A stretch of 63,999 bases of DNA, the filler included, from Folioceros fuciformis (taxonomy: Eukaryota), in assembly GCA_049999805.1 (NCBI GenBank). It is 10 parts of 10 records of this genome, joined end to end, with 100 filler letters (N's around TTAATTAATTAA, not from the genome) between each part and the next. Parts side by side here need not be neighbours in the genome. Positions count along the whole stretch, not along the records: positions 20,686 to 34,651 come from JBNGIO010001610.1; 9 more parts are not named here. One strand, 5' to 3'. How positions within the stretch are numbered: position 1 is the stretch's first letter; each line of letters opens with the position of its first letter. Under the pieces are notes generated by a model. It was not told the DNA's origin and searched no databases. It saw nothing but the letters and a program-made list of their open reading frames with translations. A program made the position numbers and the translations under genes. This document shows positions 9,481 through 54,580 of this stretch, piece after piece.

Positions 9481-10487
9481 CTATTTGTAGGTGAGCATGT
9501 AGCGGGAAATCATTCTTTTCAATTTTTGTTCTTAGTGTACACCATTTGCACTACGATACAATGCTTTAAAATGCACATTTTTTAAAACATGTAACCTACA
9601 TGTGAATATATGGAAATACAAATGCAATGAAACCAATGGTTTTTAGCCTTTGTAGCTATAGCAAAAATTGGTCTCAAGTTTTGGGGGAAGCCATTGTACA
9701 TGACGACTCTTAAAATATTATGTTGTTAAGGGTTATTTCATCAATGGCCATTGATTTTGAAAAGGGAAAAATAGTACTACAATTGTACCATAAGCTTCTA
9801 ATTGTAGAGCTAGTTTCTTACATGACACACCACAAATATGAGGGCACCCATGATAGATAAAGCAACAAAGGTGAGTGAAACCATGCACAAAATTGTTGTT
9901 TGCATGAGGAACATCAACAAACCATGCAAGAATGTGGTGTGATGGATATTGAGAATAATGGCAAAGTAAGCCATCTTTTTGGCATGGAAGAGAAGCTATG
10001 TCTATATGTGTGGAGGCAAAACCCCGGGCACTGATTGCCAACAGGTTCCACCTTTAGTGGCCACACTTCTCCCACTGTCGTTGAGACATTGGGTTTCGTT
10101 CCCAAGAAGGAGCGATGGGGTTCCTTGCTGCTGTGGATGGAGGGTCGGACTTGATCGACTCGATGATGGATTCGAGGGCTCCCCTCCAGCTCCGATCAGG
10201 CGTAGGACAGGCCTCGCTGTCTGGTGGTCAGCTGCACCTCTCTCGGTGCCCACAAACTCACTCCAGTCACTACAACGACCCTAACCTCTTAGATCTGCGA
10301 CTTCCCTCACTCACTTNNNNNNNNNNNNNNNNNNNNNNNNNNNNNNNNNNNNNNNNNNNNTTAATTAATTAANNNNNNNNNNNNNNNNNNNNNNNNNNNN
10401 NNNNNNNNNNNNNNNNCCGTCTCTACGATGAATTGAAGCCACGTTTGTCACCTGAGAGTTGTGACATTGTTTCTTCAGCTGTCGAGA

Positions 10488-14931: not shown

Positions 14932-15500
14932 TGCAATAGACACAACGACTACGTAGTGCTGCGGATCCTTTTTGCACGAAACAGTGACTAGTTTTATTCA
15001 TTCGACACATCAAAGCACACGTCTCCGGTGTTCCAAATCAGCTTCCAATCTGCTGATGCGTAGGAGGTCGCACACATGCAACCAAAATGCAACAGGAGTT
15101 AGAATCCCAGCACTTCATGCACGCAGAGACGACACCGCCTTTAACTAAAAATTCTCAAGACATGGTTCAAGACATATCACAGCTCCTCAAACCTTCAAGC
15201 TTCTCATTTCCAGTGCCTGCATCACACGCATTTCCAGCTCCGCAACACCAGCGCGAACTAATTTTTGCTCCTCCATGTCTCCTAACCCTCTACACTTGAC
15301 GCACGACAACCCTAACCCTGCGACAGATTGCCAGCGAAGGCAATCTCGCTTCAATAGGGCACCCGGTCTCCCTCCTCCAACTCCCCGGCCGCCTCCAGCC
15401 NNNNNNNNNNNNNNNNNNNNNNNNNNNNNNNNNNNNNNNNNNNNTTAATTAATTAANNNNNNNNNNNNNNNNNNNNNNNNNNNNNNNNNNNNNNNNNNNN

Positions 15501-20585: not shown

Positions 20586-21887
20586 NNNNNNNNNNNNNNN
20601 NNNNNNNNNNNNNNNNNNNNNNNNNNNNNTTAATTAATTAANNNNNNNNNNNNNNNNNNNNNNNNNNNNNNNNNNNNNNNNNNNNGTCATACTCTCCTCC
20701 TGCTCCTCCTCCTCCTCCTCCCACTCCCACTCCCACTCCCACTCCTCACCTGCATCAGCTCCCGCACCAACACTGCTCACTCACACCACCCGCCGCTGCT
20801 GCATGCAACAGTGCCAGCCAGGGTCCTCATTCCCATCCCAGACTTGCTGGGCGGCATGATATACTGCCCTCCCGCACGTGAGACCTCCCTCTCATATCAA
20901 GCTACTGTAGGCCAGAGCCATTCATGTTGCTGTGCGGTGAGCATCGGGAACTGCCCACCCTCAAGTGTGAGTACATCACGCACCCAGGCTGCCAAAATGC
21001 TCCACAGTCGGCACTAAAAGAACACAGCGTGGTGATGGAGGGCACAATCGTGTGGTCCAGCTCGGGTACGGTGGCCCTTCTCTCGCCGTGCTTTGGGGAG
21101 CCATGGCACGGTCGGGGTAAAACAAGGCACGCATCATGCACCCCTCTTGTCCAGACGTTCTGTTTTCTATCTCAGGGCACGCCGGAAAACTCGCCCTCAG
21201 ACGAAATGTCATCCACAATCTGGGAGACGCCGCTGCCATGTGCAAATCTGCAACTTGTCATAAGATCACGGTCCCTCGGACTCCCGGCTTCACCATACGT
21301 GGCTGGCGGATACCATCCTTGCGCACAGGCCTGGCTCGGTCACCCCCGGACCCACCCGCAGTTTTACAAACAGTAGCCGACTTGTCATGAATCTCTACAG
21401 TACAGCCTCCATCCATTGGATTCTACCGGGACGATTCATCAACGACGACTGCCACTCGCATCATGTTCCTCCTCCGGCATGGATCCTTAAGCGCACAACA
21501 TTCTACATTGCATGATTTTTCTTTCTTTCTTTGAGATAGATCTCGCTGAAACGGACAAGGCGCAATCATGTCCACTAGAATCCTGCATCTGTTTTTTCTT
21601 TCCCTTCCTCTCAACGTTCGTGCTCCTGCATCTGTAGGTCAGTGTGCTTCCTTGTTTTTAGCAGCCGGTAGGTGGATCAATCCTACGTCCACCAAAGGAA
21701 ATGGGCGACAATAAGAATCTGTCAGGATGACTGTAAATAAAATTAATATTTGTAATATAATATACCATTTTAATTTAATCTTACCGTATTCGTAATCCGT
21801 ACATGAAAAATCATTTTTTGATTTATTTTAAAAAACGAGAGGAAACCCATCTAGCCTAGAGAGATAAATTAAAGCATGATAGGGATA

Positions 21888-22011
21888 GCTACCTTAAAAT
21901 CTAATGATTACCAATACTACTTTTTAAAGTCTAATGATTACCAATAGCAGCTACTTTAAATTCTAATGATTACTAATAATAGCTACCTTAAAGTCTAATG
22001 ATTACCAATAG
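21888..22011 (+). repeat. ~30-bp AT-rich tandem repeat, ~4 copies
   Basis: Recurring CTACCTTAAAGTCTAATGATTACCAATA-like units. Confidence 0.8.
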
Positions 22012-22277
22012 CACTTAAATTATCATGATCAAGGAGGACAAAGGGTCCATCCACCACTGGAGTTGTTAAGGCACCTCTCTTTTTCAATGTTGCCAATTGA
22101 GGTGATTCTCTTTTTCAATGTTGCCTAAAAATCAAATGACAAAACACAAACCTCACCATTCTATTATGTTTGCCTTGAGTGTTTAGGGTTTTGTCCTTTT
22201 TTTCACAAAGCAATGAAATGGGTTTTGTCCAACACAGTTTGAATGGGTTTGTGTGGCTAATATAGTTATCATCAACC

Positions 22278-22490
22278 CAACTAAGGATTTGATTTGTGAT
22301 CACGTCATCGTCCAACTAGGGACTTGATTTGTGATCACGTCATCTTCCAACTAGGGATTTGATTTACGATCACGTCATCGTCCAACCAGGGATTTGATTT
22401 GCGATCACGTCATCGTCCAACTAGGGATTTGATTTGCGATCACGTCATCGTCCAATTGGGGATTTCATTTGCGATCACACCATCATCAAC
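22278..22490 (+). repeat. 35-bp tandem repeat, 6 copies
   Basis: CAACTAGGGATTTGATTTGCGATCACGTCATCGTC consensus, units at 22278, 22313, 22348, 22383, 22418 and 22453; no unique spacers. Confidence 0.93.
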
Positions 22491-23128
22491 CCTTGATGGG
22501 TGGCAGAGGGTTGTGCGAGTGCCACAGTCCATAAGTATTCTCTTTTATGCTAGATAGGTATATTTTCATTTCCTAGTCTAAAGAGCCATGGACAAAGACT
22601 TTCAAGGTCCATGAAATAGTCATGGGAATGAGGTTCTTCCTCTTTTCTCAATGGTGGCCTTCTTTCAATAACGCATATATGGCCATTGCTTAAGAACAAC
22701 TAACATGTATCTATTGCTTTTCTCGGCTTCTTCAACTTTTATGTATCTATTGCTTCTTCTCGCCTTCTTCAGGTTTTATTATTCAGCATCAAGACATTTA
22801 GGGAGCATGAGGTACTTTTGATCATGACACATTCGAAGGGACTAGTATCTTCTGGCTTTGGCCCTATTCGAGTTGTTTCTCATCTTTGGAGTGGATTGGA
22901 TTTTTTGTCTCTTTCTCAATAATTTAAAATAATCATTTTTGTTTGCCCTTCAAGATAAATGTTTAGGGTTGATTGTGGTCCTGAAGTCTCGTCCTTTTTA
23001 TCCCCATTTGATTCCTTGGGACAGGATCAATCTTGTATCTTCTACATAGAGGGTGAAGTTGTTTCTCCACCTTTTGAGTGTTGGTGTTTTGGTGGGCCCT
23101 ACCTTTATGCAAGAGGTGGAAAGAAACC

Positions 23129-23262
23129 GCGGGCTCTTAATTCTTCTGGCACGTTCATGCATCAAAGCGGAAGCGAAAACAAGATGGGCTCTTAACTTTT
23201 TTGGCACGTTCATGCATCAAAGTGGAAGCGAAAAAAATGATGGGCTCTTAACTTTTTGGAAC
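23129..23262 (+). repeat. ~57-bp tandem repeat, 2-3 copies
   Basis: GGGCTCTTAACTTTTTGGCACGTTCATGCATCAAAGYGGAAGCGAAAA-like unit repeated. Confidence 0.75.
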
Positions 23263-23578
23263 ACCCATAGATCCAAGCTTTCCGCATTGCGTCAGCAACT
23301 TTCGAACAGGAACATCCCACAGCCACCAGAAACTCAAGGACTATGTGTGGGTGATTCACAAATTGGAAAAGCTCATCCCCACGCTATTTGGGTGGAAATG
23401 TGTGTGTATCAAGGATATATTTAGCGGTGGTTGTACCGGATGGATTCCTAGGTACCGGACACTGCGATACCTCCAGTCCTTGAGGGTTGTTGAGATCTTT
23501 GTAGAAGACAGAGCACCTACTGCAGTGCTGTTGAGGACTATTGTGACAATACTGTGACAGTATAGCAGTATTGTGACA

Positions 23579-24150
23579 ATGGATGCAGCCGCTGCATAGC
23601 TCAAGGAGGAAGTGTGCCTTCTGAGGGGTAAGTTCACGGTGTGCATTTGCTTTTTGGGTTTGGTAATCTCTCAGAGACAAGTGTTTTGTCGACCAACCAA
23701 CAACGATGACAAAAATTATAAAAAAGATGTTGCCGCCCGACATGCGGGTTGCCAAGGATGCGCAAGAGCTACTAGTGGAGTGTGCTGCGTAGGTAGAATC
23801 GTCGTCCCCTACGTGTCGTTGGCAAACCCTTCGGTCTCCCTTGTGTTCCCCGCCCCCTAAGCCACGCCACGCTCTGGTTTTGCTATTTCCTTTTCAGAGT
23901 TCATCAACTTGGTTTCTGCCGAGTCTTATGAGATATGCAACCGAGAAGAGAAGAGGACCATAGCTCCGGCGCATGTAGTGAAAGCGCTTGAGGCAGGATC
24001 GGCAGCTTTGGCAGCCAATTTGTGGTTAAAGTGATTATCCCGAGTGGCGACAACATGGCGTGTGTGTTGGGATTGTAGGATCTAGGATTCGGGGATTACA
24101 TCCAGGAGGTTCGGATGGCTTACCAGCAGCACCTGGAGCCCTGGCGTTAG
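23579..24150 (+). pseudogene. DR1: NC2beta/Dr1 (negative cofactor 2 beta) pseudogene, 4 exon remnants
   Basis: ATMTKIIKKMLPPDMRVAKDAQELLVEC, EFINLVSAESYEICNREEKRTIAPAHVVKALE and DLGFGDYIQEVRMAYQQH. Defects: TAG at 23597, acceptor AA instead of AG at 23699-23700, 2-nt insertion near 23781, GC donor at 23993, truncated C-terminus. Confidence 0.88.
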
Positions 24151-24479
24151 CGCTGAACCAGATAAGCCTGAACCTGGCAGGCGTGCGGGATTGGAATGGG
24201 CTCCAGGTGCAGCAGTCAGTGTAAACGGGCTGTGGTTCAACGACAGACGGCCCAGTTACGGCCGCGACTGTGAGCCTGTCAAAGCGGGGGCGGGGGAAGC
24301 TTTCTGGAGCCCTGGCGTTAGCGCTGTCATACTCTGTTTCTTCTCAATCTTTTGCACTGTGCTGAAACTGTGTACAGCTAAGAAGGATGTCTTGCGGGAC
24401 GACGAGTTCTTATTCCACTGTCAACCTGGGGCACCACTAGAATGCACAACACGATGTCTTTCTTGCGAATGAATGAATG

Positions 24480-25280
24480 CATGTCGAGGTAGACTGCAGG
24501 AGTCCATGGGTGTGTCCACCAGGGTGCGCATGCCACATTTCTTCATGTGATTTTCCATCATCTCTGCTTAGGCCTTGGCCATAATCTCATGGTAGAGTTG
24601 TATGGCCTCGTTGGGTTTCCCATTCAGGGGAGACCCAATGGGGCCACATAACTCCAGCATGAGATGCGTAGGTCAGGTGTGAAGGCTGATGCACCTGTCT
24701 TTGTTGCTGCCCTTCAAGCTCGTGCGTTTGTCCCCAACTTGTAAGCTGGCAGCAAAGTTTGCTGTAATGTGGTGCAGACTACCGCACTTTGCTGGTTGGC
24801 TACTACTTGGTGTACTTGTATGCCGCCGAAGGTCGCAAACTGAAGGATCCTGGCCTAATGGATCTGACAGCTTATCCTCATTACATATGGTGACATGACG
24901 GTGCTAACAACTGGTTATTCCGAGCAATGGCCCGTAGAAGATACTCTACTTGCGTGTTGGACAAGTGAAGCAGGAGGGGCTGGTTTCGTCTAACGATGTC
25001 CCTTGGGCTTGCCTTCTCAGGGCCTTGTATGTGCTGGTGCTAGCTTCCAAAACGAAAGGCCGATGCATTCACTGTCTGTACAGCGACGATCGCCTTGCAC
25101 TGTTGTTGATCACCTGCTTGGCGGACATGATATGGAAGAGAACAACTGGAAGATGTAAGCAAGATTATTCACGGCTGGGCCACAAGGGATGTGGTGACAT
25201 GGAATGCCTGAATCGCCTGATGTGCACATAGGCTATAGGCGCAGCACCTGCGTGACGTGGTGGCTCTTTGCCCGGTGGAC
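24480..25280 (+). pseudogene. Degraded PLS-class pentatricopeptide-repeat (PPR) gene fragment
   Basis: CRGRLQES...F*SIISA*A, MRRSGVKADA...VAALQA and QVKQEGLVSSNDVPWACLLRA motifs with stops and frameshifts. Confidence 0.6.
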
Positions 25281-25360
25281 ATTTAGCAGAATGAGGTGAG
25301 CCCACACGAATTCTTCAAAATTTTGTTTCCGTTCTATTGATACATGTGGAATATCATAAA

Positions 25361-26494
25361 TCACTGGTCTTTCAGTCGCTTGACAGCATTAGCCAAAGGC
25401 ATTGCAGACCGCTTTCCAGTCACAGGGTCGACCTGTTCGGGCGGATTTGTAGCATCCACTGCGATGGTTGAAGCTCCCATGTTAGCTGGGAGGGGTGGTG
25501 GTCGGGGTGCAGGTGGTAGCTGGGTTCCAATGCACATTTCATTTCCACTCAATCCTCTTCCTCCGCAAGGATGTACAAGCAGTAGAAAATGGAAATGATC
25601 AAGAAGATACCGCACCTTCCGCAAGACGGTTGTGAGGATCTGATCGATTCTGAGAACCTCTTTCACATCTACTTTGGCTTCATCTTCTCCACTTTTGAGA
25701 TCTTGCTTTGCATCGGCGCTTTTGACATCTGCGAAGCAATACCAGTGACCCACAAGATTGCATCACACCCCGCAATCCCTGACATGGGAGGCGTACCATG
25801 AACCCATTGCAAGCTGGGAAGCACCAGGAACCCACTATTACTCACCATACCCAACCTTCTCAAGCTTCGTAGCAGCTATCCTGTAGGCCTTGTTTATATG
25901 ATACAGGGCTCGGGCCTGCAAAGACTTTCCATTCAGATGACGAACAAGGTAACTTCCGAAGGCAAATGCTCGCATCGATCTCTCCTCCCAACCGCGATAC
26001 CTAAGCCCGCGGAACTCATCAACTGCAAACTCACCACACGGGAGCCCAAGACATTCTGCAGCTGAGGGGCTTGGTATATGGACCCGTCCAAGATGTAGTA
26101 CGCAGCAAGTGGCGTCGTCTTCTCAACCCCGTCCCTCTTCTGCTTCCGAATCACAAACAGGTTGGGCTCCTGAGCTTCAAGCAGAATATACTCCAACCCT
26201 AACATCTTCCTGTGAAACCAACAACCCCCAAACCCTGTGTCTGAGCACTTCTTACGGACAAGCGTGCTCGACAACCCTACAACACCACACTCACTGGAGA
26301 TTGGCCATATCAAGAGGGTGGTTGCCGCGCATCCGCAGCTGCTCGTTATTGCACGACCGGTCGTAGAAGGGCGAGAGAGCGAAGTAATCGAACACTAGGC
26401 CACGGTCCAAAGGAAAACTCTTGAGCCACATCTGGTCTCGAAAACTGATGCTGGTCATGTCCGTGCCAGGAGGACTCCCATCTGGCAAGGCCAT
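25361..26494 (-). CDS. MED6: Mediator subunit 6, exons 26494-26295, 26209-26035, 25915-25846, 25728-25616, 25519-25361
   Basis: [36 protein letters not shown] and GLEY....[14 protein letters not shown]....[17 protein letters not shown]; all GT-AG junctions keep the frame. Confidence 0.95.
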
Positions 26495-27984
26495 CCCTCT
26501 CGCAGCTACCAGATCCTCGTCGGAAGAAATGCGCCGTATCTGGCCCAGTAGAGAACAAATAAATGGCCGTCGCGGATTTCGGGATCAGTTTCCTTGCCTG
26601 CTGAGACAATTCTCACACCGCCCTACCATCGCAGCTCCTCATAACACTTCCTTGGGAACCGTCAAGAGCCGCTCTTTCCTGCCAGCGTCGTTGCGAGGTA
26701 CTGTGACTGACTGATTCCGCCAGCTTAGGCTGCTGAGCAGCTCCTTGCCTTGTCCATAGCTGTAGGTCATGGTGTCTCCCTTTCCAAGCCCCAGCCCTCC
26801 GAGCGAGCCTCAACCCCTGGAAGCAAGCGAGGCATACAGAATCGGAAACTGGCCCAGGTTCAGAAGAGAGGAGAACTCCGCTTTGCACAGATCTTCCCTT
26901 TCACTTCATCAATCAGAATGTAGGAACCCAGCACTGATGACCAAAGAAGTGACTTCGCAGTTGGCATCTAGCAGTAAAGAGACCTAAATTCCCCTGCCAA
27001 TCAACCTATGTACTGTATTTTGGGACCCATCAGTTTAAAATGGGGCCCACCACCAAAGCACTCGCTTCTGGCGTTCTCGGTGTTCCTCCATTGCCCACGG
27101 CCATATGGGATACGAGGCGGCAAGGTATGTGCTGTCACAGCAAAGAACTGTGTTGATGAAGCCGCTTTCTCGCAATCGCAAGATCTGCATGGACAAATGC
27201 CTCCTGCGTACGTAGAACGTTGCAGCAGTTTCGAGAGGTAGGCATGTAGACGTACACATCGATGCGATTCGTCGCCTATCCTCGGCAGCTGTCACCGTGG
27301 GATGCTGAAAAGACGATGAACGATTGTCCCAGCTATGTGATGCGAGCAGGAACGCCGACGTTGTTTGCACACGGACAGGAGGGGCGGTAGAAAGGAGCAG
27401 CTGCCTGGTGGGCATGCGATCGTGAATAGTTTTACCATCCCTGGTGGGCACCATGAACTGGAGTCCTTAGACGTAAATGTGGCGAAGTGGAATCGGTGAA
27501 AGCTGGGCCTGGCCATTCACGGTTTGCACTCAAAACACGTCCCGGACGACCTGTAACCTGTTAGTGAATCCTTCCATGTGGTTCCTATGGGAGACCTGCC
27601 GGGGTATCGTGCAACCTGGTACATTGCTGGAGAATCAGGCGCAGAGAAAGAAAGAAGGTCTTCAATTATTGTACTGGAGGTTGATGCAACAGAGATTGTA
27701 GAATTCGGAATTCGAGCGAGCAAGGTTTCAGAACTCCATGCTGTTTGAACACTCACGGCATGATGTGCTCGCATTCCTACCTCGATAGTGAAGAGCACAA
27801 GCAGAATTGTGATAATGGAGTCGATGGTTACCCCTAGCCTACCGATACTCCAAGGAGGGTCGACAGAAGTCATGAAGTCCTTCTTCCCCAGAAGCGTCGT
27901 CCTACCTATGGTTTCCTTCCAGCTTCTTCTGACACCCAGCTACATAATTATGTCCTTTGTCGGTCCATGTGTAGTACCAGAGCT

Positions 27985-29051
27985 CTAGTCCACTGCTGGC
28001 AGTTCGCACTGTTGGAGGAAGGGAAAAAGTCGTTCGATGGTCCCTCTTACGTGACGAGACTCTACGGCTCGGTTGATTAGAACCCTTCCAGAGACAAAAA
28101 CTGTGGCATGCACCATGCGGTCCTCCACAAACACTTCAACACGAAAGCCTCGGTAGCGGTGTGGCTCATACTTACGGACTAAGAACTGCGCATGCCCAGC
28201 GGCGACCCCGGCAGCATTGAATCGTGTTGCCTGCTCTTCCTTGAGAATGTTGTTGAGTTTCCCCAAGTCAACCAGAAAGGGCAGCCGGCCATATGCTAAG
28301 AGGTTGTTAACTCTCAAGTTGTGCGACGCGGCTCCAAGGTAGCCCGCAGCACGCACCACCTCCACGATCTCGCTGGCTACAGAACGCGCACGACTAACCT
28401 TGGAACCTCCCATTAAGGACACCTTCCCTGTCCTGAACACGAAGGCCACGTACCCCCACCGCGCGCGCCAGGGGAGCGCTAGCTTGTTCGGGTAAAGTTC
28501 CCTGGGGAGAATTGAGTCGGGGGCGAACTGGGCCAACCGCTGTAAGTCCACTTCCACGCCCAGGTCCAGTGTCGCGCTAACATTTTTTTGCACGAAAGAT
28601 TCGAGCAAGAGACTGATCGGCGTGGAGGTCGAGCGCTCCGCATTCGCATTCGCATTCGCGCTGGGCCGGAGTGCGCTATCGCCGACGGCGCTGGGGCCGG
28701 CTCCGTCCGGAGTGCTGGATGGATCCCTGTCACTCGACTCAGGCATGCCCTCCATCTGTTCCCATTCCGAGCACACACACATTCGCATTCACACAGCAGT
28801 GAGAAGCTGCAGCCGGTCGTGCAAGACATCAAGACTGCGAGAAAGCAAAAGCTTGAGACCTCCAACATCCCAAGATGAAACACCTGCACTTGCACATCCT
28901 CGTCTATGGCTGACGAAGCATGGGAAGCCGCGCCGTCGCCATGGCCAGGCATTTGGTAAGAGCCTCTTGGCAGCCACTCTTCTCCCTCACTCAAGTTCTC
29001 AAAAGTGAATGTTTGCAAGGAGCCCGCAGCAGTATATAGTCCTTTGTGCAT
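27985..29051 (-). CDS. Highly divergent TATA-binding-protein-like factor (two TBP repeats); proposed exons 29051-28884 and 28755-27985
   Basis: Repeat 1: QKNVSATLDLGVEVDLQRLA...AFVFRTGKVSLMG. Repeat 2: LRVNNLLAYGRLPFLVDLGKL...YEPHRYRG...ATVFVSGRVLI...TIERLFPFL. These parallel TBP QNIVSTVNL..LDL...ALIFASGKMVCTG and FKIQNIV...YEPELFPG...LIFVSGKIVI...ENIYPVL. The upstream exon joins by a phase-0 GT-AG intron (less certain). Confidence 0.82.
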
Positions 29052-29455
29052 TTAGGATTTATGCACTTCTGAACTTCCGAGCTCATCAACTTCTCAACAT
29101 CTCAGCTTCTCGGCGTATCGTCTTATCAAGTTCTAACTTCGCAACTTATACTTATCAACTTCTAAGCATCTCAATTCCTCAGCTTCTCAACTCATCAAGT
29201 TTTTGAAAAAGAATTTGTGTGATTCTCTCTGCCGGCAGTTAGCATAACGTGATTCGATGACAAAGGAGGAGATAATGTGGATCTGTTGGCTATCTTCTTG
29301 TGGCGGCCACTGCGAATCCCCTGTCACACTTTGGCAGCACAGCATTCCTTCGAATCCGGTCGTGAAAGAAAGCGAGCTGCGCTGCGGGCCAGAATGGTTG
29401 AATCTGACGCCAAGTAGAAGGGGGGGGGCGTGGTGGAAGGTCTGTCTGTAAAGGG

Positions 29456-30262
29456 ATGATGATCAGCGCAGGCTCACGGGAGCTGGCAGGCTGTTGCTCT
29501 TGCAAATCACCGAGCCTGCCGTCATCTACTGCGCAGCATCCCTTGCCACGTTCGTCTTTCTGTGCTATTTTCCTCAGGGACGCCGTGCCACTCTGCTCAC
29601 GTCTCCGGCATTGCCATCTGGTTCAGTTGGCTCTCTCTCGAGATGCCTCCTTGGAGACCTTGTCTTACGGGGGGAGGCCGCGCCGGAAACGCGCCTCAAG
29701 CTCAGTCTGTGGAGCAATGGATGGCTGGCTGTCAGGGATTGTGCTCCTGGACATCGATCCTCCAGATGTCCAGACCATCATCCTCAGTGCCAGTGTGTTG
29801 GCCGCCACATCTGCGTCGCTCTACTTCGGACTGAAGGTGAGAGCTACCTACGGCTTTGCAGCTTCTTGCGTCCTTGAAGGTGGAGCTAACACATCGTTGT
29901 GGAAAATGATTTGTGCAGGGCGAGCCGATATCGTGCGAAAGGTGTGGCGGAAACGGTGAGGATGGAAAACCTGAACCAACGTATTCCGCGTAACAGCGCC
30001 AGACTAACCATTTTGTATCGTTGGAGCAGGTGGTACAAAATGTGTGTTTTGTGAAGATGGGAAAATGAGAACAGAAACAGGACGTGGCGACTGCCGAGTG
30101 TGCAAGGGTGCAGGTACGTAGTATCGTATAGCTGTGTTGAAAATGCACAGTGAGGACCATTACGCTAGAAGCCTAGCAATGGTAACAAATGATTGTCCAC
30201 AACTCGCAGGTCTCATTCTCTGCAAAAACTGCAGGGGTTCCGGCTACTCCAGAAAGCTGTAG
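29456..30262 (+). CDS. Plastid-type DnaJ-like cysteine-rich zinc-finger protein with one TM helix; exons 29456-29836, 29919-29955, 30030-30113, 30210-30262
   Basis: Ser/Arg-rich transit-like N-terminus, hydrophobic [19 protein letters not shown], then [23 protein letters not shown] and CKNCRGSG repeats; in-frame splice sites. Confidence 0.88.
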
Positions 30263-30522
30263 CTACTGAGAGGAGTGCAAGGCACTATCCTATAACCTGA
30301 GCGGCCACTCAATTCGCATTTTATCAGTGCGCTACCCCATTAACGCTTTCCAAGATATTTGTCCCGAAGACAACCCGCTAGGATTGAAATGGCAAAATCT
30401 TCACGAATCTCTGAGGTAAACCATGTCTTCGATGGGCATGAAAGACCCAATCCAGATTCCTCACATAGTGGAAACTGCAGGATAGATCAACAATCAATCT
30501 GCACCCTGAAGAGGGGCACAAA

Positions 30523-31902
30523 TCAATCATAGCTTGCATTAAGAAATTTGAGAAGTTCATTCCGGTTACTCTCTGCCAGCTTGTCCTCTTTGGTCTTCTC
30601 CACTTTCATCTGGATCTGCAACCAGCCATGTCATCAAATACAGTTGTCTAACCGGAACCAGGCCCACAATGCTATGCAGTAGTACGCGACAGATATCAAA
30701 CCTTCTTTCCCGAAACAACGCTTCGCCGTACCCTGTCATCCTTACTCCCTCGACCGAGGAACTGAAGGGACATACATCGACCAATAAATTCAGTAGAACC
30801 AAAGCCACAATGAAAAGCCACTTAAACTGGACGAAGGTAAGAAAAATGATGAGGAAAAAAACCTTGGAGAGCTGTACAGGCCCAGTGCTATCTTTGCTCG
30901 ACTTCTATATTGTCAGCTCCATAGTTGCAGATAAGACCCATTGACGAATCACATCCATCAGCAACAATCCAACAATCGGCCAGCAACAACGGGCCCGCCA
31001 TCCCATGAGTTTATAATCCAGGTTGCAGACCGCGGCTCCAATTTCGAAGGGCCCAATCCACATACAGGCAGCAGATACGAATCAGTACCATACTTACTAC
31101 ATGCTTGGCAGGGGTTCACAACAGGCCCGGACATGCTACATTGGCCATGCACGAGCTTCACAGCCACAGATCCTCAAAACATCCAGAGACTAGAAAAACG
31201 GGTTAAAGAAGTCTACCTCCTTCTGTTTGTGAAGCTTGTGCTTATGCTTGTGAGTTCTTTCACGACTCCGTTCCTTGACATCCTTATCCTTCCCTTCCTA
31301 CACGTCCAGCCCAATAAAAATCCGCACACAACGCAGTGCAACACACAACAGATGCAAAACCTGGTAGGCCAAATCAAACCTTCTTCCGGGATCGGGATAT
31401 GCGCCTGTGCTTCCTCGACCGATCCGAACTGTCAGCCTCACTATCACTGCTGGACGACTCCTCCCTGCACAAGAATATGTCGCCGTCAGTACAGCTCCCT
31501 CCACACAAGGAGCTCAACATGTCAGCTAAACCCCTTGCGGCTCACGTTCCACGCCACAATTCACAGACAGAGATCTGTCTTACACCAACACGCACCTGCT
31601 TCACACATAAACCCTGTCATCAAACCCCATGCTCACCTGGACCTACGCTTGCCAGCCCGTCGTTTCTCAGCTCGCTCGCCCCCGCTCAAACTGTCCCCGG
31701 CACTCCTACTGTTGCACTCGCTGTCCGAGCCGCCGCCACCAGTACTACAGTCGCTGCTGCTCACAGCGCTCTCACTTGCGACCTTCTTGTCCCGCTCCCC
31801 CGTCCTGTGCCGCCGCTTGCTCTTCCGCAGCCGATCCCGGCTCCGGCCATGGTGATGCGAGTCCCCGCCCTCCGACGACGACGACGAGGAAGGCCACACC
31901 AT
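30523..31902 (-). CDS. Multi-exon Ser/Arg/Lys-rich protein of unknown function
   Basis: Exons read MVWPSSSS...RRSR, EESSSSDSEADSSDRSRKHRRISRSRKK, EGKDKDVKERSRERTHKHKHK, STGPVQLSK, FLGRGSKDDRVRRSVVSGKK and IQMKVEKTKEDKLAESNRNELLKFLNASYD*, with mostly clear GT-AG boundaries. Confidence 0.75.
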
Positions 31903-32645
31903 CTCTTCCGGTCCTTTCAGCTGCCCTTCCCACCTAGCCCTTCCCGCCCTCCTTCAGCTCCCAATCCACCACAAGTATGCAAAACAAATTCCTCCCAGCC
32001 TCTCCGCCCAAACCTGCTCGCTGCCACAGTGTGCCAAGCCAGCAGCAGCACCGAGCTCCGCTCCCTCCAAGCACAGCTACTCCACCTTCCGCTCCCACGC
32101 CTGTGTAGGTCTGCTCTCGATCCTTCTCAGAAGCACAAGAACAGAGCGTGCGAGTGCCCCGAGATTCGGCGGGACCCCGAGGCCCGCGCTACAGCTGCCC
32201 GCCCCGAGTAACGGAACGGAACGTATCGTCGTCAGATGGTGGCAACGAAACGCGACAGGACGGAACCCCAAAGGACAGAGCCCTGGTGGGTGGGACGCAC
32301 GACCAACGACGCGGGCCACACCGCAGTTGGAAACTCATTTTCAGACCCATTTTAAAACGCTTGATTCCAAAGAGGGATAGGTTCGTAATGCCAGGAGACT
32401 CAATTTCAGTCTTTGATCCAAGATCACTGAATAACAAAATCAAAAACAGCTGGAACAGATTCAAAAAGAGACGTTGGCATAGGAATGGGGAAAGCCAACA
32501 AACTTCATTCCTTTGCAAAATGGTCTACTTCTTTGATGACTATCAAAACAAAAGCAAGATAAAGAAAGACTGTGTCATTATTATCAAGTGTTCTTCGAGT
32601 TTGAAGCTTAGTCCGAAGAACTTGTGGCACAGAAGCACCTAGGCT

Positions 32646-34139
32646 ATGTTAGCAGAAATCATGGAGGCTACTGCAACACAAACCTGCTTCATGGATTACC
32701 TTCCAGACAGTACACTAGAACAAATTCTGAGTATATTACCCTTTGTAGCTCAAGCACGAGCCCGATTTGTATGCAAGAGGTGGTACAAGATCATCACATC
32801 GTTGTATGAAGATAACTACATCGATACTTCTTTGGAACAACCTTGGCTGATCCTCATTAGGTGGAAGTTTTCCATGACAGATTCTTCAACTAGGAACATT
32901 CCACATAAGTGGGAACACATTTGCCATGCCTTTGACCCAAATTCCTTTAGATGGTTCACGATGCCTCTTCCCACAAGCCTAGGAAGCCATGTGAAGATAA
33001 GCAAAGGCAGGGTAGGTAATGCAGGTTTAGTGCTATTGAAGGAGCGTTTTTATGAACACTCTGATTATTCAAGGTTTTGGGTGGGCAATCCCATTGAGAA
33101 TAGTTGGCAAAGCGTGGATATCCCATATGAATACACTAAGTATGCTTATAACAAGTATAAGAAGTATAACATGGATGAGCTGATTGCAGATGAGAGGACC
33201 AAGAGCTTCAAAATCATGAGAATTCAAGTTGATTTTCGTCATTCATTTCCAACTCCAACTTGCAGAGCTTATATCTACAACTCCAAGGAGTCTAGCTGGA
33301 CCAAAGGAGATAGATCACACATGAATATTCGCTTACCTACATATGATAATATGGACATCACCCATCTTAACGTTGGATTTCTTAAAGGAGGAGGAATAGT
33401 AACCAATGACACTGTCTACCTTTTGTTCAAATGTTCATATGACCTAATGAACAATGGAAGAAGAATTTACTATGGTGTAGGTTTTCATATCGCTACCTAC
33501 TTAGTGGAGCAAGATCAGTGGGCCTTGTCTCCCCCAATTACTTGTGGTCTATTGGATCCTGGATTTTTACATAGTTGGGATTCGCTGTTGGAGGATGACA
33601 ACAATATTGAGCCTTTCAACTTTGTTGCACGCTTCACATTTCCTTTACTTTTTGAGTCTAGGCGTAATCTATCCTTGAACATACCCAATAACCTTCGCTT
33701 TGTCTATCTCCGCTACATGCTTACTTCAAATGATCCTACCTATCCTCCCTTCAACTATCGTCTCACGATGACTACTTTACTGAGCCATGTAGTGCTAAAA
33801 CATATCAAGCACTATTCTAAGAAACTTTATGATGTCCTCCTACATGAGAAATGTCTCAAAGCTGCAGGAAGTTTGAAGACGTTTTATATTGCTGCGAATA
33901 ATAAGTTTGCACAGATCAATGCAACATTTGTAACATTCAAGAATGGCAAAATAGAGTCGAGACAAGTGCTTGAGGATCCCACAACAAATCTCTTTGATTC
34001 AACAGATTTCGAATTCCCAAGCACATTGCAAAACTTGAACTCGGAAGCACGTCGTACTTACTATAACTATTCTATTACAAGTCTTCAACCACGATTTCAC
34101 GCGTTTCCTTCTTGGTGGGTTATAAATCCTAAGAAGTAG
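32646..34139 (+). CDS. Intronless F-box protein with divergent FBA/kelch-like C-terminus
   Basis: DYLPDSTLEQILSILPFVAQARARFVCKRWYKII F-box; AFDP...W, GLVLL and WVGNP...W motifs; 497-aa ORF. Confidence 0.88.
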   Translation: MLAEIMEATATQTCFMDYLPDSTLEQILSILPFVAQARARFVCKRWYKIITSLYEDNYIDTSLEQPWLILIRWKFSMTDSSTRNIPHKWEHICHAFDPNSFRWFTMPLPTSLGSHVKISKGRVGNAGLVLLKERFYEHSDYSRFWVGNPIENSWQSVDIPYEYTKYAYNKYKKYNMDELIADERTKSFKIMRIQVDFRHSFPTPTCRAYIYNSKESSWTKGDRSHMNIRLPTYDNMDITHLNVGFLKGGGIVTNDTVYLLFKCSYDLMNNGRRIYYGVGFHIATYLVEQDQWALSPPITCGLLDPGFLHSWDSLLEDDNNIEPFNFVARFTFPLLFESRRNLSLNIPNNLRFVYLRYMLTSNDPTYPPFNYRLTMTTLLSHVVLKHIKHYSKKLYDVLLHEKCLKAAGSLKTFYIAANNKFAQINATFVTFKNGKIESRQVLEDPTTNLFDSTDFEFPSTLQNLNSEARRTYYNYSITSLQPRFHAFPSWWVINPKK

Positions 34140-34751
34140 TTAGGATAAGAAGCTCTTCCTTCATTAGCTTTTTGATTGGCACTACAATATCTCACAATGG
34201 AACTGTATAGATTTAAGCTTCCTTAGAGAGCTATGACACTCTTTGAACATGGATGAAGATTGGGTGTATGAAATGAAGCTTTGGATAGGTCCTTTTCTTC
34301 TCCAATTTGATATCTTAGCTGTAGTACGTAGTGACAAAATAGGCAAAACAAGGAAGATTTTGCGCCCTCTTTCAAGGGTTTCTTCCCCTCTCTTCTGATA
34401 TATTAATGTATCCCATCTTTCTTTTGTAATAAAGTCAAATCGTGACATGTATGTATCACCGAAATTATAATTCTTACTACTTCCAAGCCAGAAATGCCTG
34501 CGTGAAGAGGCGTAGTTTCGTGATGAGGACTTCGGCGATGGAGGCAGAGCGTGGCTTGTGAAGCCGAGCGAAGCGACGATGCAAATGCAGCGGGTTTGGA
34601 CGGGATCTCGGCGTATGCTGCGGCTGCGCGGGGGAGGTGGCGGCGGAGGATNNNNNNNNNNNNNNNNNNNNNNNNNNNNNNNNNNNNNNNNNNNNTTAAT
34701 TAATTAANNNNNNNNNNNNNNNNNNNNNNNNNNNNNNNNNNNNNNNNNNNN

Positions 34752-40082: not shown

Positions 40083-40182
40083 NNNNNNNNNNNNNNNNNN
40101 NNNNNNNNNNNNNNNNNNNNNNNNNNTTAATTAATTAANNNNNNNNNNNNNNNNNNNNNNNNNNNNNNNNNNNNNNNNNNNN

Positions 40183-43100
40183 GCGCTATGCACCCGATTT
40201 GCTGTTGAGTGACAGTTTAGCGGTTATTTTCCCTGCCATCTGCGTGTCACACGAACACCCTTTCAGTTTTAGGGCACGTTTCTTTTTAGGTAGGTTTTCC
40301 TAATTAGATTTTAGGGCACCCTTTATGAGGGTATCTTAGACAGTTATTCTAGATATGAATCGACACATACATGTTTTCACATACCTTCCCTGTCAATTGA
40401 CATTAGCCACAATAGCTACGTAACTGTCTTGTAAACATCTCTCCCTTGTAGCAGTCCCTTGTCCTGCACCTGCCATGGCAACTCCTTCATTCACATCTGA
40501 CATAAAGGATAAAGACCGCTTCAATGGGACAAGATTTGATATTTGGAAGGTTCGCATGAAAACTACCTTGGTAGCTCGTGGTGTCTAGAGTGTTGTTGAT
40601 GGCTCCTACCCGGATCCTGGTGTACCTGGTGCGGCAGGAACTACTAGTGCAGGCTTCACTCAAGTTGACAAGGACAAGTGGGATGGCTTCAATTTCCATC
40701 GCCATTGCTCTCTTGGTCAACGGCTTGGACGCTGACCTTATTCCTCAGACTGAATACCTGGTGAAGGCTAAAGATATTTGGGATCAATTGACAAATACTT
40801 ACAAGGTTCAGAATATGATGACCCTCTGTCAAGTTCGCTTCGAGCTCTGCAGTTTGCAAATGAGAGATGGTGAGTCTGTCTCACATCATATCAGCAAATT
40901 TTGACGCTTGCAATCGCAACTCAATGTACTTGGGAGCACCATGACTGAAGCTGATGCAGTGGCACAATTTCTGGTCAGCCTCCCTGCAAGTTATCAGACC
41001 TTCGTCACCACTCAGAATATGCCTATTGCCCTTCCCGGCCAAGCTCTTCCCGCTGGTGCTCAACAACCTTCTCTGGAGCATGTGGTGGCAGCCCTCTACC
41101 AAGAAGAACAAACACGCCTTATGAGAGGGCAGCAGAAGCCAAACAAAACTGACAAGGTTTTCTTTACAACCAAAGGCAGAGGCAGAGGAAGAGGGCGGAA
41201 TCTGAATCAACGTGCTGTTCTCGGTTCCTATACACCTGGCAACACTGGTTCATCTTCCTCTGCTCCGAAACGATAAGGTACATGCAATTGGTGTGGTACT
41301 CCAGGACATTGGGCACGAGAATGCCGGAAAAAGAAAGCTGGGGTGCCTCAACGAGTTTCTTCTCGACCCTCTGCACATACAACCACACATCAAGTTAGTC
41401 AAGACAAACAGTCCTCAACAACATCCACAAATTCAGGCAAGCCAGTAGTGAAGATTCTTACTGTCTGTCTTAATAACACTTTGACGAGTGAGGTGGATTG
41501 GTGGTTTTTGGACTCAGGGGCAACAACCCATATCTGTCGGGATGCGTCTCTCTTCACTAGTTTAACACTCTCAGCAATCGCTGAAAAGGTATACTTAGGT
41601 GATGAGAGCATAGGGAGTAGTCTTCAGATCCTTGGTAGAGGAGTCTGCAAGTTTCCCTTACACGATGATAGCGTGTTAGTCCTCCCAGATGTCCTGTATG
41701 TACCAAAGATGGCTAAGAACTTGATGTCACTTAGCAAATTGATGAAAATGAAGGATCTAGTCCTTACCGTATCAGAAGACACTTGTTGTTTCTCTAGATG
41801 TAGTGCTCCAGCTATATGTATCTTCAAAGCTTTTGTAGATTCAGAATTATATCGTCTAGACATTTTCTGTCTCCGTCGACAGCAAGCATGTTCTACTACA
41901 GTTGGCAGCCTTACAGCTGTCCAGCAGGCCAAGCTGTGGCATGCACGCCTGGGCCATGCTAATAGAACTAAATTGATTGATACCTCTAAGCAGGATTGCT
42001 ATCGGGAGCCTCTCCCACGTTGTTTCAAGGAGTTGCCTATTTGTGAAGTTTGCACTCTTGCTAAACAATGGGAGACTCCTTTTCCACGAGCACCTGCACA
42101 CAGGACAACTTCAGTCCTCGACTTGGTGCACTCAGACATCTTTGGCAGGCTACAAACTCAATCATTAGGAGGCGAATCCTATTATCTGACGTTAACTGAC
42201 GACTATAGCCGGTATACGTGGACATACCCTATGCATCATAAGAGTGATACATTTCCTATCTTCAAGGATTGGTTGACCATGGTGCAGCGTCAAACCGGTT
42301 GTTTACTCAAGCTCTTCAGGACCGACAATGGTGGCGAATTTGTCAGTCATGCCTTCACGGAGTTCCTGACCAGCCAAGGGATTATTCATCAGCTCATTGT
42401 TCCATATACTCAGCAGCAAAATGGGGTGGCCGAGAGAAAGAATCAAACATTAATGGGCATGACGAGATCAATGCTCTTGTGGTCAAGATTACCTTCCCCA
42501 TATTGGGCAGAAGTAGTGGTGACAGCCACATCCGTCACAGTCTGTTCCAGATAGTACACCTTTCGAGAGATTCTGGAAGCGCAAACCAAGCATTCTTCAT
42601 CTTCGCGTTTTTGGCTCGAAAGCCTTTGCATACATACCTGTTGAGAAGAGGCGTAAACTCGACAATCGCTCAAAGGGGTTAGTATTTGTTGGCTACAGCA
42701 AAATTGCCAAAGGCTATAAACTTATTGATGTAGATACTTTACAGCCAACTGTAGCAAGGAGTGTTACTTTCCTAGAGACATTGGAGCCACCAGTCACAGG
42801 GGACAACATACTGGTTGAACGACATGAAGGCCCTTTGATGTTCACAGAGGAGCATTTTGACTACCCTGATGACGCTGATGGAGATACTGTCCCCGCTATT
42901 CCACCCTTGCCACCTGCACAGCCTGTTATGGTACCTGTACAACCCCAACAGCAGCCCCAGAATCCGCCAGTCCTGGCTCCTATCGAACCACCTGCCCCCA
43001 TTCCATTAGCAATCCCTGATCTTGAACCTCCAGCTGGTGACACACAAGTAGAAGTACCTGCTGCAGATCTTGTTCCACATCCAGAAAATCCAGATAGTCA

Positions 43101-45889
43101 GTCAGATACAGATTCCGAATCTGATCATTCTTCCCAAAATTCTGATTCTGCGGGTGAAGGAGAGCCATTACCTGTCCCAGCAGTTGATCCAGTTCAGCCT
43201 GTTCGTCGATCCACACGTGTTCATCGCCCCCCTTCTGAATGGACAGAACCTCATTATACTTCTATTGATTTTCGCAAGTCAGTGGGAGTCTGTACTCCCA
43301 CTATCCATTCTGTCTCCCTGCCTGTCATTCCTCCTGAACCTGTTACACTCAAGGAAGCTTTTTCAGGCCCAGACAAGGACAAATGGACATATGCTGTGCA
43401 TGATGAATACAATAGTTTAATTCAGAATGGCACCTGGAAGTTGGTTCCCCGTCCTGAAGGCCGTAGACCCATTACGTGTAAGTGGGTCTTTAAACACAAG
43501 CTCAACTCTAAGGGGGAGATTGCTAGATATAAGGCTCGCTTGTGTGCAAGGGGGTTCACCCAAATTCCAGGCCTCGACTTCCAGGAGACCTTCTCTCCCG
43601 TAGTCAGATCCCAGTCTATCCGTCTCATTCTTGCTTTAGCAACTGAACATGATCTGGAGCTTGAACAAATGGACGTCAAGACTGCATTCTTACATGGTGT
43701 TTTGGAGGAAGAGTTGTACATGGAGCTGCCCGAGGGCTACGAGGACCCTGCACATCCGGATTGGGTTTGCCAGTTAATCAAGTGCATTTATGGTTTGAAA
43801 CAATCAGCAGAACGCTAGAATGCTAGACTAGACACTTGCCTGCGTGCACTTGGCTTTCGCCAGAGTCCTGCTGACCCCTCAGTTTACATCTATGATGATG
43901 GCTCCTCTTATGTGCTGCTAGCTGTGTATGTGGACGATGCTATATTTGCAGCCAACGACAAACAATTGTTAGCCAAAGTTCAAGCCATGTTACGCAATGA
44001 ATTCGAGATGACTGATGTTGGTGAGCTGAAGTTTTGCCTTGGGATTCAAGTGCTGCGAGTGAGAGAGAAGGGCATGATTATTATACATCAACACAAATAT
44101 CTCTCTGAAATTCTGCAACGCTTCAACATGGATTCAGCTCACCCTGCTGCCACACCTGGAGCAACTGGTGTGCGACTTTCAAAACTGGACAGCCCTACCT
44201 CTGCCATGGACATTGCCGATATGCAGGATGTTCCTTACAGACATGCTGTGGGAAGCCTTCTTTTTGTGAGTAATTGGACATGTCTAGACATCACCTTTGC
44301 CGTGAATACTGCTTCCCAATTCTTGGATTGTCCAGGGAGAAATCACTGGACAGTGGTTAAACGTGTATTTCGCTACCTTAAAGGTACTCACTATTTGGGC
44401 TTATGCTACAAGCGAGGAGGCTCACATTCTACCTTGCGTGGTTTTGCTGATGCTGACTGGGCCTCTGATGGCGATTCTCACAAGAGTCTTTCGACTTATG
44501 CCTTTCTTCTATCCTCTGCTGCTGTTAATTGGAGCTGTAAAAAACAACCAAGTATAGCTTTATCTAGCACAGAGGTGGAATATAAGTGCTTGACTGATGC
44601 GGCCAAAGAGGTGGAGTGGGAGAGAGCTTTCCTGGCTTCAGTACACGCAAAACAGCCAGAACCTACCATCCTTTTTTGCGACAATCAGTTTGCTCTTGCT
44701 CTTGTTGAACGCCCTCGCTTCCACGCCCGTACTAAGCACATCGAGATTCAGCATCATTATGTTAGAGATGTGAAATCCAGAGGTATTGTTTTGCCTACCT
44801 ATATACACACAGACTCCAATGTTGCTGACATTCTCACAAAACCCTTGCCCAAACACAAGCATCAGGCACACGTAGAAGGCCTGGGCCTTGTGGATTTCTC
44901 ACAGTACTTTATTGCATAACTTAGGCTTACATGCGTGGCAGTCCTAGCGTACCTCCAACATCCCTAGTGGTCTTGCCTCATGTTTCCTACTGTCTGTATA
45001 CCTACACACACAAGCAGGCAGACATGTATTTTAGCTTTGTCTTTCAGCTTGGTCTGTTCCCCTGCATACTCTGTATGGCTTCAGTGGGAGCCGGCAAAGT
45101 TAGACCAGCTGTCCATTTTCCCTGTGTTTAGAGGATGAAGCCCCACGTCTATCCAAGCCTAGCACATGGAAACATAAGAATAAGTCGACAATGTTACCTC
45201 TAGAGTTGCGCGCTGCCTCCATCTTTTAGCGTGTACAATCCCTGTGCAGCTAGCTCCGTCAGCAGATCCCGATACTCATCCGCCGTTAGCTCCCTGTCGT
45301 CCTCTCTCATTTCCACGCCTGCTTCGGCCTGTTCTTTCAGCTGGGTTGTTCGAGCCTTGTGATCCTTCTTCCTGGCCTCGAGTCTTGCCTCCCTTCGGTC
45401 GCTTCTGGCTGGATAGCCCCATGCTCACAGACCTGACCTTCTTGAGGACAAGCTCAAGCTGTATGACTGATGGTGCAATGAGGAAGACGAGGAGAGCGAT
45501 TTCCAGCAGCAACAGACAGAGCGCGAACCATGGAACGAAACCGTCCATCCTGTTGGCGCTTACTCCAAGGTGCAGGAATCCGAAGCGTCGTGCCAGCTAG
45601 GGTTTACTGGATAAGTTTCAATTAGCTTTCTACTTTAACCCGTCGAGGTTAAGTGGGAGTGTTAAATAAGTAACCATATAGGGTTAAATATCTCTAGCAA
45701 TCTGGGTTAAATGCGTTGTACTATAAATACCTTTTTGTTCTTCATGTTTACTCTCCTTTTAATAATTCATTTCTTCTATTCTACCTATCCATTAGCCTAC
45801 ATTACTAGCAAGCAACCGATGCTCTGCGGATCGGATCACATAATCAGCTTATTAGTTAATTAAATACCCTGAAATACATATAAGTAACA
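40183..45889 (+). mobile_element. Near full-length Ty1/copia element: gag-pol 40475-44919 with several stops/frameshifts, 3' extension, PPT 45651-45659, 3' LTR from 45660
   Basis: DRFNGTRFDIWK gag; CNWCGTPGHWAREC zinc knuckle; WFLDSGATTH protease; LWHARLGH and DNGGEF integrase; MDVKTAFLHG and VYVDD RT; ADADWA...RTKHIEIQHHYVRD RNase H; AAGTGGGAG then TGTTAAA. LTR end at ...TAACA 45889 is tentative. Confidence 0.95.
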
Positions 45890-46830
45890 ATGCTGGTTTG
45901 AGTGCCAAGCAAGTAAGCTCCATGCAGAGGCATGTNNNNNNNNNNNNNNNNNNNNNNNNNNNNNNNNNNNNNNNNNNNNTTAATTAATTAANNNNNNNNN
46001 NNNNNNNNNNNNNNNNNNNNNNNNNNNNNNNNNNNCTGACACCATGTTCCGTCCAGGACACTGGCCTGGCCGCGTCTCTGCCACTGTTTACATAGTCGAG
46101 GGAACTGTTACTGTTTTATTATACAGTATGTACAATGCAGTATGTGAGTGTAAGAAGGGGAGTGTGGGGTCACGATCGCCCATGTGCTGCCATGCCCTCC
46201 CCCGGACCACACCGGGCCTGGCCTGGGGCTGCTTAATCCCTGTTGGGAGGCAGGGTTAGCGTGCCCTAATCATGTCGGAGAGGAAAGGACGGAAAAGAAA
46301 GGAAAAGAAAGCGGGCAGGCCGGGCCGGGGATTTGGGCACTCATTGTGACCAGGGTCCAGGACAAGGAAAAGCGGGTGTCCTGCAGCCGGTAACAAATGT
46401 ACAGAGAGAAAGAGAAAGAGGCAAGAGAGATGATGTCAGAGCCGGACGACTCGGAGCGTGCGGAGTGCGCCATCACGACTTGGAAGTTGGACTCACTGCG
46501 GCTGCTGCAAACTGCAGGCCGCGAGCTGCGAGTGACGAGAAGGGGTGGGTGGAGCGATGGACTGGAATGTTTGCTGCAATCGCTGATTCTCCTCTCTTCT
46601 ATTCCACTTCCAGTACATTGTCTCGGGCGACATTGCCATGGAAAGATGGGGGAAAGAAATGGCACGCGATTACCGCGCCCAGCACCCGGGGCGGTAGCAT
46701 GGCTGGGCTGTTAATAAGCTCAGTGCTGCTGCTGGAGCTGGTGAGAGCGTGGTCTTGATCTCGAATAGACCTTGCTTGCCCTGCTACCCAGGCACGTGCA
46801 GCCATCTTCCGCTTGCCCTTGCATCTGCTC

Positions 46831-54480: not shown

Positions 54481-54580
54481 NNNNNNNNNNNNNNNNNNNN
54501 NNNNNNNNNNNNNNNNNNNNNNNNTTAATTAATTAANNNNNNNNNNNNNNNNNNNNNNNNNNNNNNNNNNNNNNNNNNNN

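Follow-up and report, generated by a model that had tools for sequence, protein, structure and literature searches.

Does a streptophyte genome encode a TATA-binding protein (TBP) that has departed far from the canonical factor, and if so, what has that protein kept and what has it changed? The question is raised by a single open reading frame (ORF) in DNA of Folioceros fuciformis (GenBank assembly GCA_049999805.1), analyzed here as a stretch of 63,999 nucleotides that joins 10 parts of 10 records and is referred to below as the window. All coordinates are those of the whole joined stretch; the ORF lies within the part at positions 20,686-34,651 (record JBNGIO010001610.1), and the other parts are not necessarily its genomic neighbors. 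Most of what is known about specialized TBP paralogues concerns animals and certain protists. An original prediction, made from the sequence of this DNA, had placed an intact, highly divergent TBP-related factor of a land plant at 27985-29051. Here, we find that the ORF encodes a TBP family protein of extreme divergence, and we put at roughly 55% the probability that it is an intact gene for a lineage-restricted TBP-related factor whose fold is under selection and whose DNA and partner specificity has been altered.

An uninterrupted ORF with two TBP repeats

The complete ORF occupies positions 27985-28788 on the minus strand and consists of 267 codons followed by a TAG stop codon at 27985-27987; as the original prediction held, it runs through both TBP repeats without interruption. 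An in-frame TGA lies immediately 5' of the first ATG, and other in-frame starts occur at M3, M12, and M15. The gene had been proposed to extend to 29051 by way of an upstream exon (28884-29051) and an intron (28756-28883) on the minus strand, but positions 28789-29051 lie in a different frame and are joined to the ORF solely through that hypothetical intron. The latter is 128 nt long with GT..AG ends, keeps the frame, and has a GC content of 0.51; the arrangement is frame compatible and unsupported, and we exclude it from the gene.

DNA contigs of sequencing runs X1 and X2 span the ORF with 0 differences, and a single X2 contig (record 14; 24359-28612) connects it with the neighboring MED6 gene. 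The ORF has the same DNA k-mer depth as its unique flanks, no second copy at ≥90% likeness was seen, and tblastn with TBPs found no second TBP-like sequence within the window. The GC content at third codon positions (GC3) is 0.65, compared with 0.41 to 0.73 in eight other measured ORFs of the window.

The encoded protein passes the Pfam TBP model PF00352 at 55.7 bits (gathering score, 22.9; E = 4.4e-15) with two matched stretches, the two hits that had been expected of it. At E ≤ 10, it matches 35 distinct TBP sequences from PDB, the best of which is the human TBP core (E = 6.4e-5); yeast, microsporidian, archaeal, and Arabidopsis TBPs come next. Homology spans residues 66-260 and stops 7 residues short of the stop codon, as ordinary TBP cores do. 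The protein is thus a very divergent TBP family member.

Ahead of the core, residues 1-65 (28594-28788, minus strand) form an acidic, low-complexity region (isoelectric point [pI], 4.1; 10 acidic versus 4 basic residues) that is rich in Ser, Pro, and Ala and predicted to be disordered, in keeping with the earlier description of this terminus. Within it, a hexanucleotide microsatellite (CGCATT, 3.5 copies; 28639-28659) encodes an ANANANA run. Repeat 1 covers residues ~66-155 (28324-28593, minus strand) and carries N69, Y99 (or L103), F118, G121, K122, and G127, whereas repeat 2 covers residues ~156-260 (28009-28323, minus strand) and carries N162, Y207-E208-P209, H210 in place of Glu, Y212, F231, and S233-G234.

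Contact residues and predicted fold

Residues were compared in two MAFFT alignments, one of the query with 13 TBPs (A1) and one of the query with 61 TBPs (A2; 62 rows). A2 took in 27 of the 31 proteins found by the library search described below, with P0002, P0004, P0006, and P0012 omitted as long multidomain or extended proteins, together with 34 of 120 listed canonical TBPs; Klebsormidium, Oldenlandia, Fragaria, and Malus TBPs are among the rows. The individual positions named below are those that we take to be the DNA contacts of TBP.

The minor-groove Asn is kept in both repeats, at N69 (KNVS) and N162 (NNLL), which occupy invariant or near-invariant columns of A1 and A2. Each intercalating pair likewise keeps its distal Phe, at F118 (VFRTGK) and F231 (VFVSGR), and on these four residues the original prediction was right. 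Its claim that the proximal Phe has become Tyr stands for repeat 2, where Y212 (HRY) takes that position, and is divided for repeat 1: the MAFFT alignments place Y99 (RELYP) there, whereas a HMMER alignment to human TBP sets L103 opposite the first Phe. The repeat 1 assignment is uncertain because the S2-S3 stirrup region has three additional residues and a lower model score. Either way, two of the four Phe residues that make up the two pairs of a TATA-binding TBP proper are retained. Both groove Thr positions are replaced (M126 and N239), and further DNA-face positions have changed (V71S, L116F, V164L, L229T, and V237L). The core is strongly basic, with a pI of 10.57 and a net charge of +12, versus medians of 9.69 and +10 in 60 TBPs.

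Of the residues that canonical eukaryotic TBPs conserve for their partners, nearly all have probably been lost. Two Glu residues of the C-terminal stirrup (C.L3.2 and C.L3.4) are described in PMC7221094 as contacts of TFIIB/TFB that archaea and eukaryotes alike conserve. In the query, the first is kept as E208 and the second is H210, and the residues beside the second have also changed (F212Y, P213R, and L215F), turning Leu-Phe-Pro into Arg-Tyr-Arg near H210. Repeat 2 further contains an insertion, KEEQATRFNAAGVAAGHAQFL, at residues ~183-203 (28180-28242, minus strand) between helix H1' and strand S2'. It measures 17 to 21 residues, close to the ~20 first proposed, and falls in a gap in all 13 other TBPs of A1 and all 61 of A2.

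An AlphaFold2 model built on the 62-row TBP alignment reached a mean predicted local distance difference test score (pLDDT) of 82.7 and a predicted template modeling score of 0.73. Most of the core scored 89 to 98, the first stirrup scored 76, the insertion block at residues 191-200 averaged 59, and residues 1-41 fell below 50. The model is predicted to adopt the TBP saddle, a ten-stranded sheet with four helices atop, and in it the insertion lengthens H1' (helix 175-192) and continues as a loop; the extended H1' adjoins the TFIIB-contact site. Foldseek against PDB placed the human TBP core 1cdw_A first (E = 4.9e-15; template modeling [TM] score normalized to the target, 0.86; 20% identity), and the PDB matches listed are exclusively TBPs down to rank 44. 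Cellular TBP structures matched at 16 to 21% identity with TM scores of up to 0.87. Because the model was built on an alignment of TBPs, it establishes that the sequence is compatible with the fold and does not count as evidence separate from homology.

Distant relatives and possible signs of selection

The description of the protein as highly divergent and unlike canonical plant TBP was borne out. Its identity to the 61 other TBPs of A2 is 19 to 29%, and the Klebsormidium and Oldenlandia TBPs yield no tblastn match to the ORF at E ≤ 10, whereas the archaeal-type protein P0001 does detect it. An exhaustive HMMER search of 1.84 billion representative proteins returned 31 at E ≤ 1e-3, comprising archaeal-type TBPs, ordinary eukaryotic TBPs, and divergent TBPs. 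Against the Pfam TBP model, three of these (P0005, P0009, and P0015) score 137 to 182 bits and the very divergent P0017 and P0028 score 75 to 82, compared with 55.7 for the query.

P0017 and P0028, both from Logan assemblies, are 33% identical to the query over 126 residues and 24% over 202 residues, respectively. They share with it an inter-repeat linker, AGY..AA..N..V.N, that is not found in canonical TBPs, and the three group in the tree with a Shimodaira-Hasegawa-like approximate likelihood ratio test value of 91. Both differ from the query in lacking the repeat 2 insertion and in carrying a CNITG motif that the query lacks. The shared linker hints that P0017 and P0028 may represent a broader, as yet undescribed family of divergent TBPs; all three proteins have long branches, which may be joined artefactually.

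Scans for nearer relatives gave negative results: 0 of 17 and 0 of 37 candidate stretches were confirmed in two viral-contig scans, and 0 of 143 in a scan of metagenome proteins. A degenerate DNA pattern for YEPHRYRGF had one match (L001), which proved to be a chance occurrence in the antisense frame of a bacterial oxidoreductase-like ORF. As a control, the ELP1 gene of the window has a best match of 54% identity in the same protein collection, where named land-plant ELP1s are 38 to 44% identical. The collection thus holds no close relative of the organism, so a missing orthologue is weak evidence for lineage restriction.

We infer that selection has maintained the protein for its fold and for nucleic acid binding, since both Asn residues, the distal Phe residues, structural Gly, Pro, and aromatic positions, and a core pI of 10.6 are kept. 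Retention is strongly uneven. Of 37 positions that are conserved in archaeal as well as eukaryotic TBPs, 20 are retained (one being the start Met), versus 7 of 59 that are conserved in eukaryotic TBPs alone (Fisher's exact P = 1.4e-5). Such a contrast is not expected from uniform neutral decay of a canonical TBP and suggests that the divergence took place under selection. The basic core points the same way, as does a simulation of drift: when substitution-only drift to 25% identity was simulated, 2 of 300 runs stayed free of stop codons and the median run acquired 7; indels would reduce survival of an open frame below this figure.

Locus, neighboring genes, and transcripts

The ORF lies in a 2.4-kb spacer between the minus-strand MED6 gene on one side and a plus-strand gene on the other, both of which have spliced RNA contigs. 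MED6 (25300-26953, minus strand) has RNA-supported introns at 25520-25615, 25729-25845, 25915-26033, and 26209-26293 and a 5' untranslated region of ~490 nt; its mRNA contig reaches 26953, ~1 kb downstream of the TBP-like stop codon. The gene on the other side (29323-30700, plus strand), divergent from the TBP-like ORF, is expressed and spliced, with an intron at ~29835-29916. By eye, its product resembles small DnaJ-type zinc-finger proteins, with a hydrophobic segment at the N terminus and several CxxCxGxG motifs. Between this gene and the TBP-like ORF, the spacer contains a degenerate 8-bp tandem repeat, TCAACTTC, in ~14 copies (29058-29201). While the neighbors are spliced, the TBP-like core is uninterrupted, which agrees with the intronless core first described.

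The RNA contigs are those of X4, an RNA-like run labeled as the same species and available as contigs only. Those of MED6 and the plus-strand gene have 0 mismatches and canonical splice joints. They leave 27231-29096, a span that includes the ORF and the proposed exon and intron, uncovered, which is evidence neither for nor against its transcription. Among the sequencing runs listed for 27700-29300, none was an RNA run.

The wider surroundings in the window are those of ordinary nuclear genes, with ELP1, a RING protein, and a chlorophyll a/b-binding protein further out on the MED6 side and two GH18 chitinase-like genes, an F-box protein, and a Copia element on the other. The TBP-like ORF has no transposon structure, as neither terminal inverted repeats nor long direct repeats were found around it, and no viral or TFIIB-like gene was found near it among the 20 large ORFs of the window that were examined. 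The attribution to a land plant is plausible and holds approximately: ELP1 is 42 to 44% identical to gymnosperm, liverwort, moss, and lycophyte ELP1s, but in a tree built from land plants, without streptophyte algae, it stands alone on a deep branch, and its relationship to liverworts, mosses, Selaginella, and euphyllophytes is an unresolved polytomy.

Other features of the window were noted along the way. Three stretches (22255-22565, 24121-24742, and 25054-25364) stand out by a k-mer depth that exceeds that of the adjacent sequence 10- to 25-fold in every DNA run as well as in the RNA-like run; partial contigs and loose ends are numerous there, and the stretches are probably dispersed repeats in or beside the 3' part of MED6. 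The Copia-type pol region (integrase and RVT_2; 41277-44919, plus strand) is split over three frames and probably degraded. The GH18 chitinase-like ORFs lie at 50595-51839 (minus strand; two N-terminal LysM domains) and 52744-53715 (plus strand). Finally, nine pairs of 44-base N runs with 12 bases between them recur every 5 to 6 kb across most of the window, with wider gaps of 8.5 and 14 kb, at 5361-5460, 10317-10416, 15401-15500, 20586-20685, 34652-34751, 40083-40182, 45936-46035, 54481-54580, and 60035-60134; these resemble masking or scaffolding rather than biology.

Competing explanations

Several results weigh against the reading of this ORF as a gene for a selected, lineage-restricted TBP-related factor. 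Its best HMMER hit shares 30% identity with it (E = 6.9e-8), no protein in that search reached E ≤ 1e-10, and a k-mer homologue search of 5.8 billion proteins gave 0 hits. No orthologue or close relative was found in any collection searched, and purifying selection is for that reason not directly measurable. AlphaFold2 run from the single sequence failed (pLDDT, 34.8), so that the fold model hinges on the TBP alignment. The retention test has its own bias, in that the alignment tends to pair like residues in conserved columns and the 8 rows from archaea were among the best hits of the query, and 2 of the 300 neutral simulations did, after all, remain open.

These points leave room for a silent relic, that is, a once-functional TBP paralogue or retrocopy that is now unexpressed and either recently inactivated or drifting, with its frame still open by chance. 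The missing orthologue would fit, as would the in-frame stop that abuts the first ATG, the weak start contexts, the placement of the ORF between two divergently transcribed genes, and a Pfam score that is low for the family. We consider this explanation rather unlikely, given that 267 codons remain open and end 7 residues past the TBP core, as in ordinary TBPs, that the retained residues concentrate at universally conserved fold and DNA positions, and that neutral drift so rarely left a frame intact even without indels; an inactivation that happened recently would be compatible with all of this. The tree offers little guidance on origin. In a quick search on all 62 rows of A2 (209 columns), the end branch of the query is saturated (length 10, the maximum) and its composition is deviant; the query joins three further long branches, lies in no starred clade, and falls weakly on the eukaryotic side. 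Because of that saturation, retrocopy, ancient paralogue, and viral capture are not separable by the tree.

Capture from a DNA virus with a divergent TBP, whether a giant virus (Nucleocytoviricota) or some other, with or without later domestication, was among the origins first suggested, and it finds encouragement in the nearest ESM Atlas cluster, a TBP-domain cluster (score, 0.95) whose known members are 76% viral, mostly Nucleocytoviricota. The gene is intronless, the eukaryote-specific TBP signature is mostly missing, and TFIIB-contact residues are commonly missing from viral TBPs, according to PMC7221094. A specific viral affinity was nevertheless sought and not found, either in the two viral-contig scans or among BFVD structures, whose matches reach 7 to 16% identity and TM scores of ≤0.70, well short of the cellular ones; spliced host genes stand on both sides with no viral gene nearby, and GC3 agrees with that of host genes. 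We regard viral capture as improbable. Transfer from a cellular donor outside plants, such as an archaeon, is more improbable still. It would account for the archaeal-type P0001 being the top hit of the exhaustive search and detecting the ORF by tblastn, which green-lineage TBPs fail to do, for matches to archaeal NCBIfam TBP models at E = 3.1e-11, and for the intronless gene. Yet the NCBIfam scores all lie far under the cutoffs (43 versus 181 bits), the layout of a disordered N-terminal tail and a C-terminal core is eukaryote-like, and the core is basic like those of eukaryotic TBPs, whereas P0001 and P0010 are acidic (pI, 5.0 and 4.25). The tree position leans to the eukaryotic side, and PDB scores do not favor archaeal TBPs. 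As for a chance ORF with no TBP relationship, the region is GC-rich, which makes random ORFs longer, and the single-sequence fold did fail, but a Pfam score more than twice the gathering score with both repeats matching, together with independent matches in PDB, NCBIfam, 31 library proteins, and the ESM Atlas, practically refutes it.

Proposed function and comparison with known systems

If the ORF is a functional gene for a TBP-related factor, its retained saddle, two Asn residues, two of four Phe residues, and positive charge suggest that the concave sheet most likely binds DNA in the minor groove. The proximal Tyr, M126, N239, and the changes V71S, L116F, V164L, L229T, and V237L would be expected to alter sequence preference and to make bending weaker or different. 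The N-terminal stirrup of TBP is the TFIIA-binding side. The canonical TFIIB and TFIIA contacts are probably unused, given His210, the Arg-Tyr-Arg replacement, the remodeled N-terminal stirrup, and the insertion of ~20 residues beside the C-terminal stirrup. The intercalating Phe pairs are reported to have co-evolved with NC2 and Mot1/BTAF1 (PMC6672047), and regulation by NC2 and Mot1/BTAF1 may therefore also be lost. The role would most likely be that of a specialized TBP-related factor with its own partners or of a promoter competitor of TBP. Recognition of non-TATA promoters, or a decoy function, may follow from the residue changes.

Compared with canonical eukaryotic TBP (plant TBP1/TBP2; PDB 1cdw, 1ytb, and 1vok), the protein is alike in its two-repeat C-terminal saddle, its variable disordered N terminus, both groove Asn residues, the distal Phe residues, structural Gly and Pro positions, and a basic core. 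It is unlike canonical TBP in its low identity (16 to 21% by structure and 19 to 29% by sequence) and in retaining 7 of 59 eukaryote-specific positions; together with the lack of a tblastn match from green-lineage TBPs, these values set it apart from a canonical green-lineage orthologue. Proximal Tyr, Met and Asn for the groove Thr residues, His for the second TFIIB Glu, a remodeled N-terminal stirrup, the repeat 2 insertion, and an apparently intronless coding sequence are further differences. Giant-virus TBPs and protist TBP paralogues show similar divergence, having lost host-type TFIIB-contact residues while keeping a nucleic acid-binding signature (PMC7221094). The query differs from the viral proteins in that no specific sequence or structure affinity to them was found and its gene sits among spliced host genes.

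In the literature searched, plant TBP paralogues appear as near-identical duplicates or in passing mention, and no divergent plant or streptophyte TBP-related factor is described; the supplementary alignments of PMC4180970 and PMC7221094 may bear on this. The TBP-like gene is known from a single sequence, which limits the weight that it can carry. Should it prove to be expressed and conserved in its lineage, it would represent an independent diversification of core-promoter factors in a plant lineage and a natural experiment on which TBP residues are free to change while the saddle is kept.

A functional parallel may be with the animal TBP-related factors (TRFs), namely, TRF2/TLF/TBPL1, TRF1, and TRF3/TBPL2, which the query would resemble as a second, divergent TBP family protein with changes at intercalating Phe positions and an expected shift in promoter preference. 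TRF2 has lost DNA-intercalating Phe residues and does not bind TATA (PMC10005294), and TBPL1 has Trp at one universally conserved Phe position (PMC7221094). Since TRF2 is reported to have originated in bilaterian ancestry and to be restricted to that lineage (PMC4180970), the TBP-like protein is presumably not a TRF2 orthologue. In our tree, which holds TBPL2 and not TBPL1, the two TBPL2 rows group with canonical TBPs and away from the query; a TBPL1 cluster stands at rank 25 in the ESM Atlas (score, 0.92). We raise, as a tentative and doubtful proposal, that a deep-branching streptophyte lineage evolved, or acquired and domesticated, a TRF independently of animals, giving it a private route of non-TATA initiation or an antagonist that occupies promoters in place of TBP. 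Such a protein would have kept the saddle, rewritten both stirrups, and placed an insertion beside the TFIIB site; its partner could be a plant-specific TFIIB-related factor and its activity perhaps restricted in stage, e.g., to gametogenesis, in a counterpart to the TRFs of animals.

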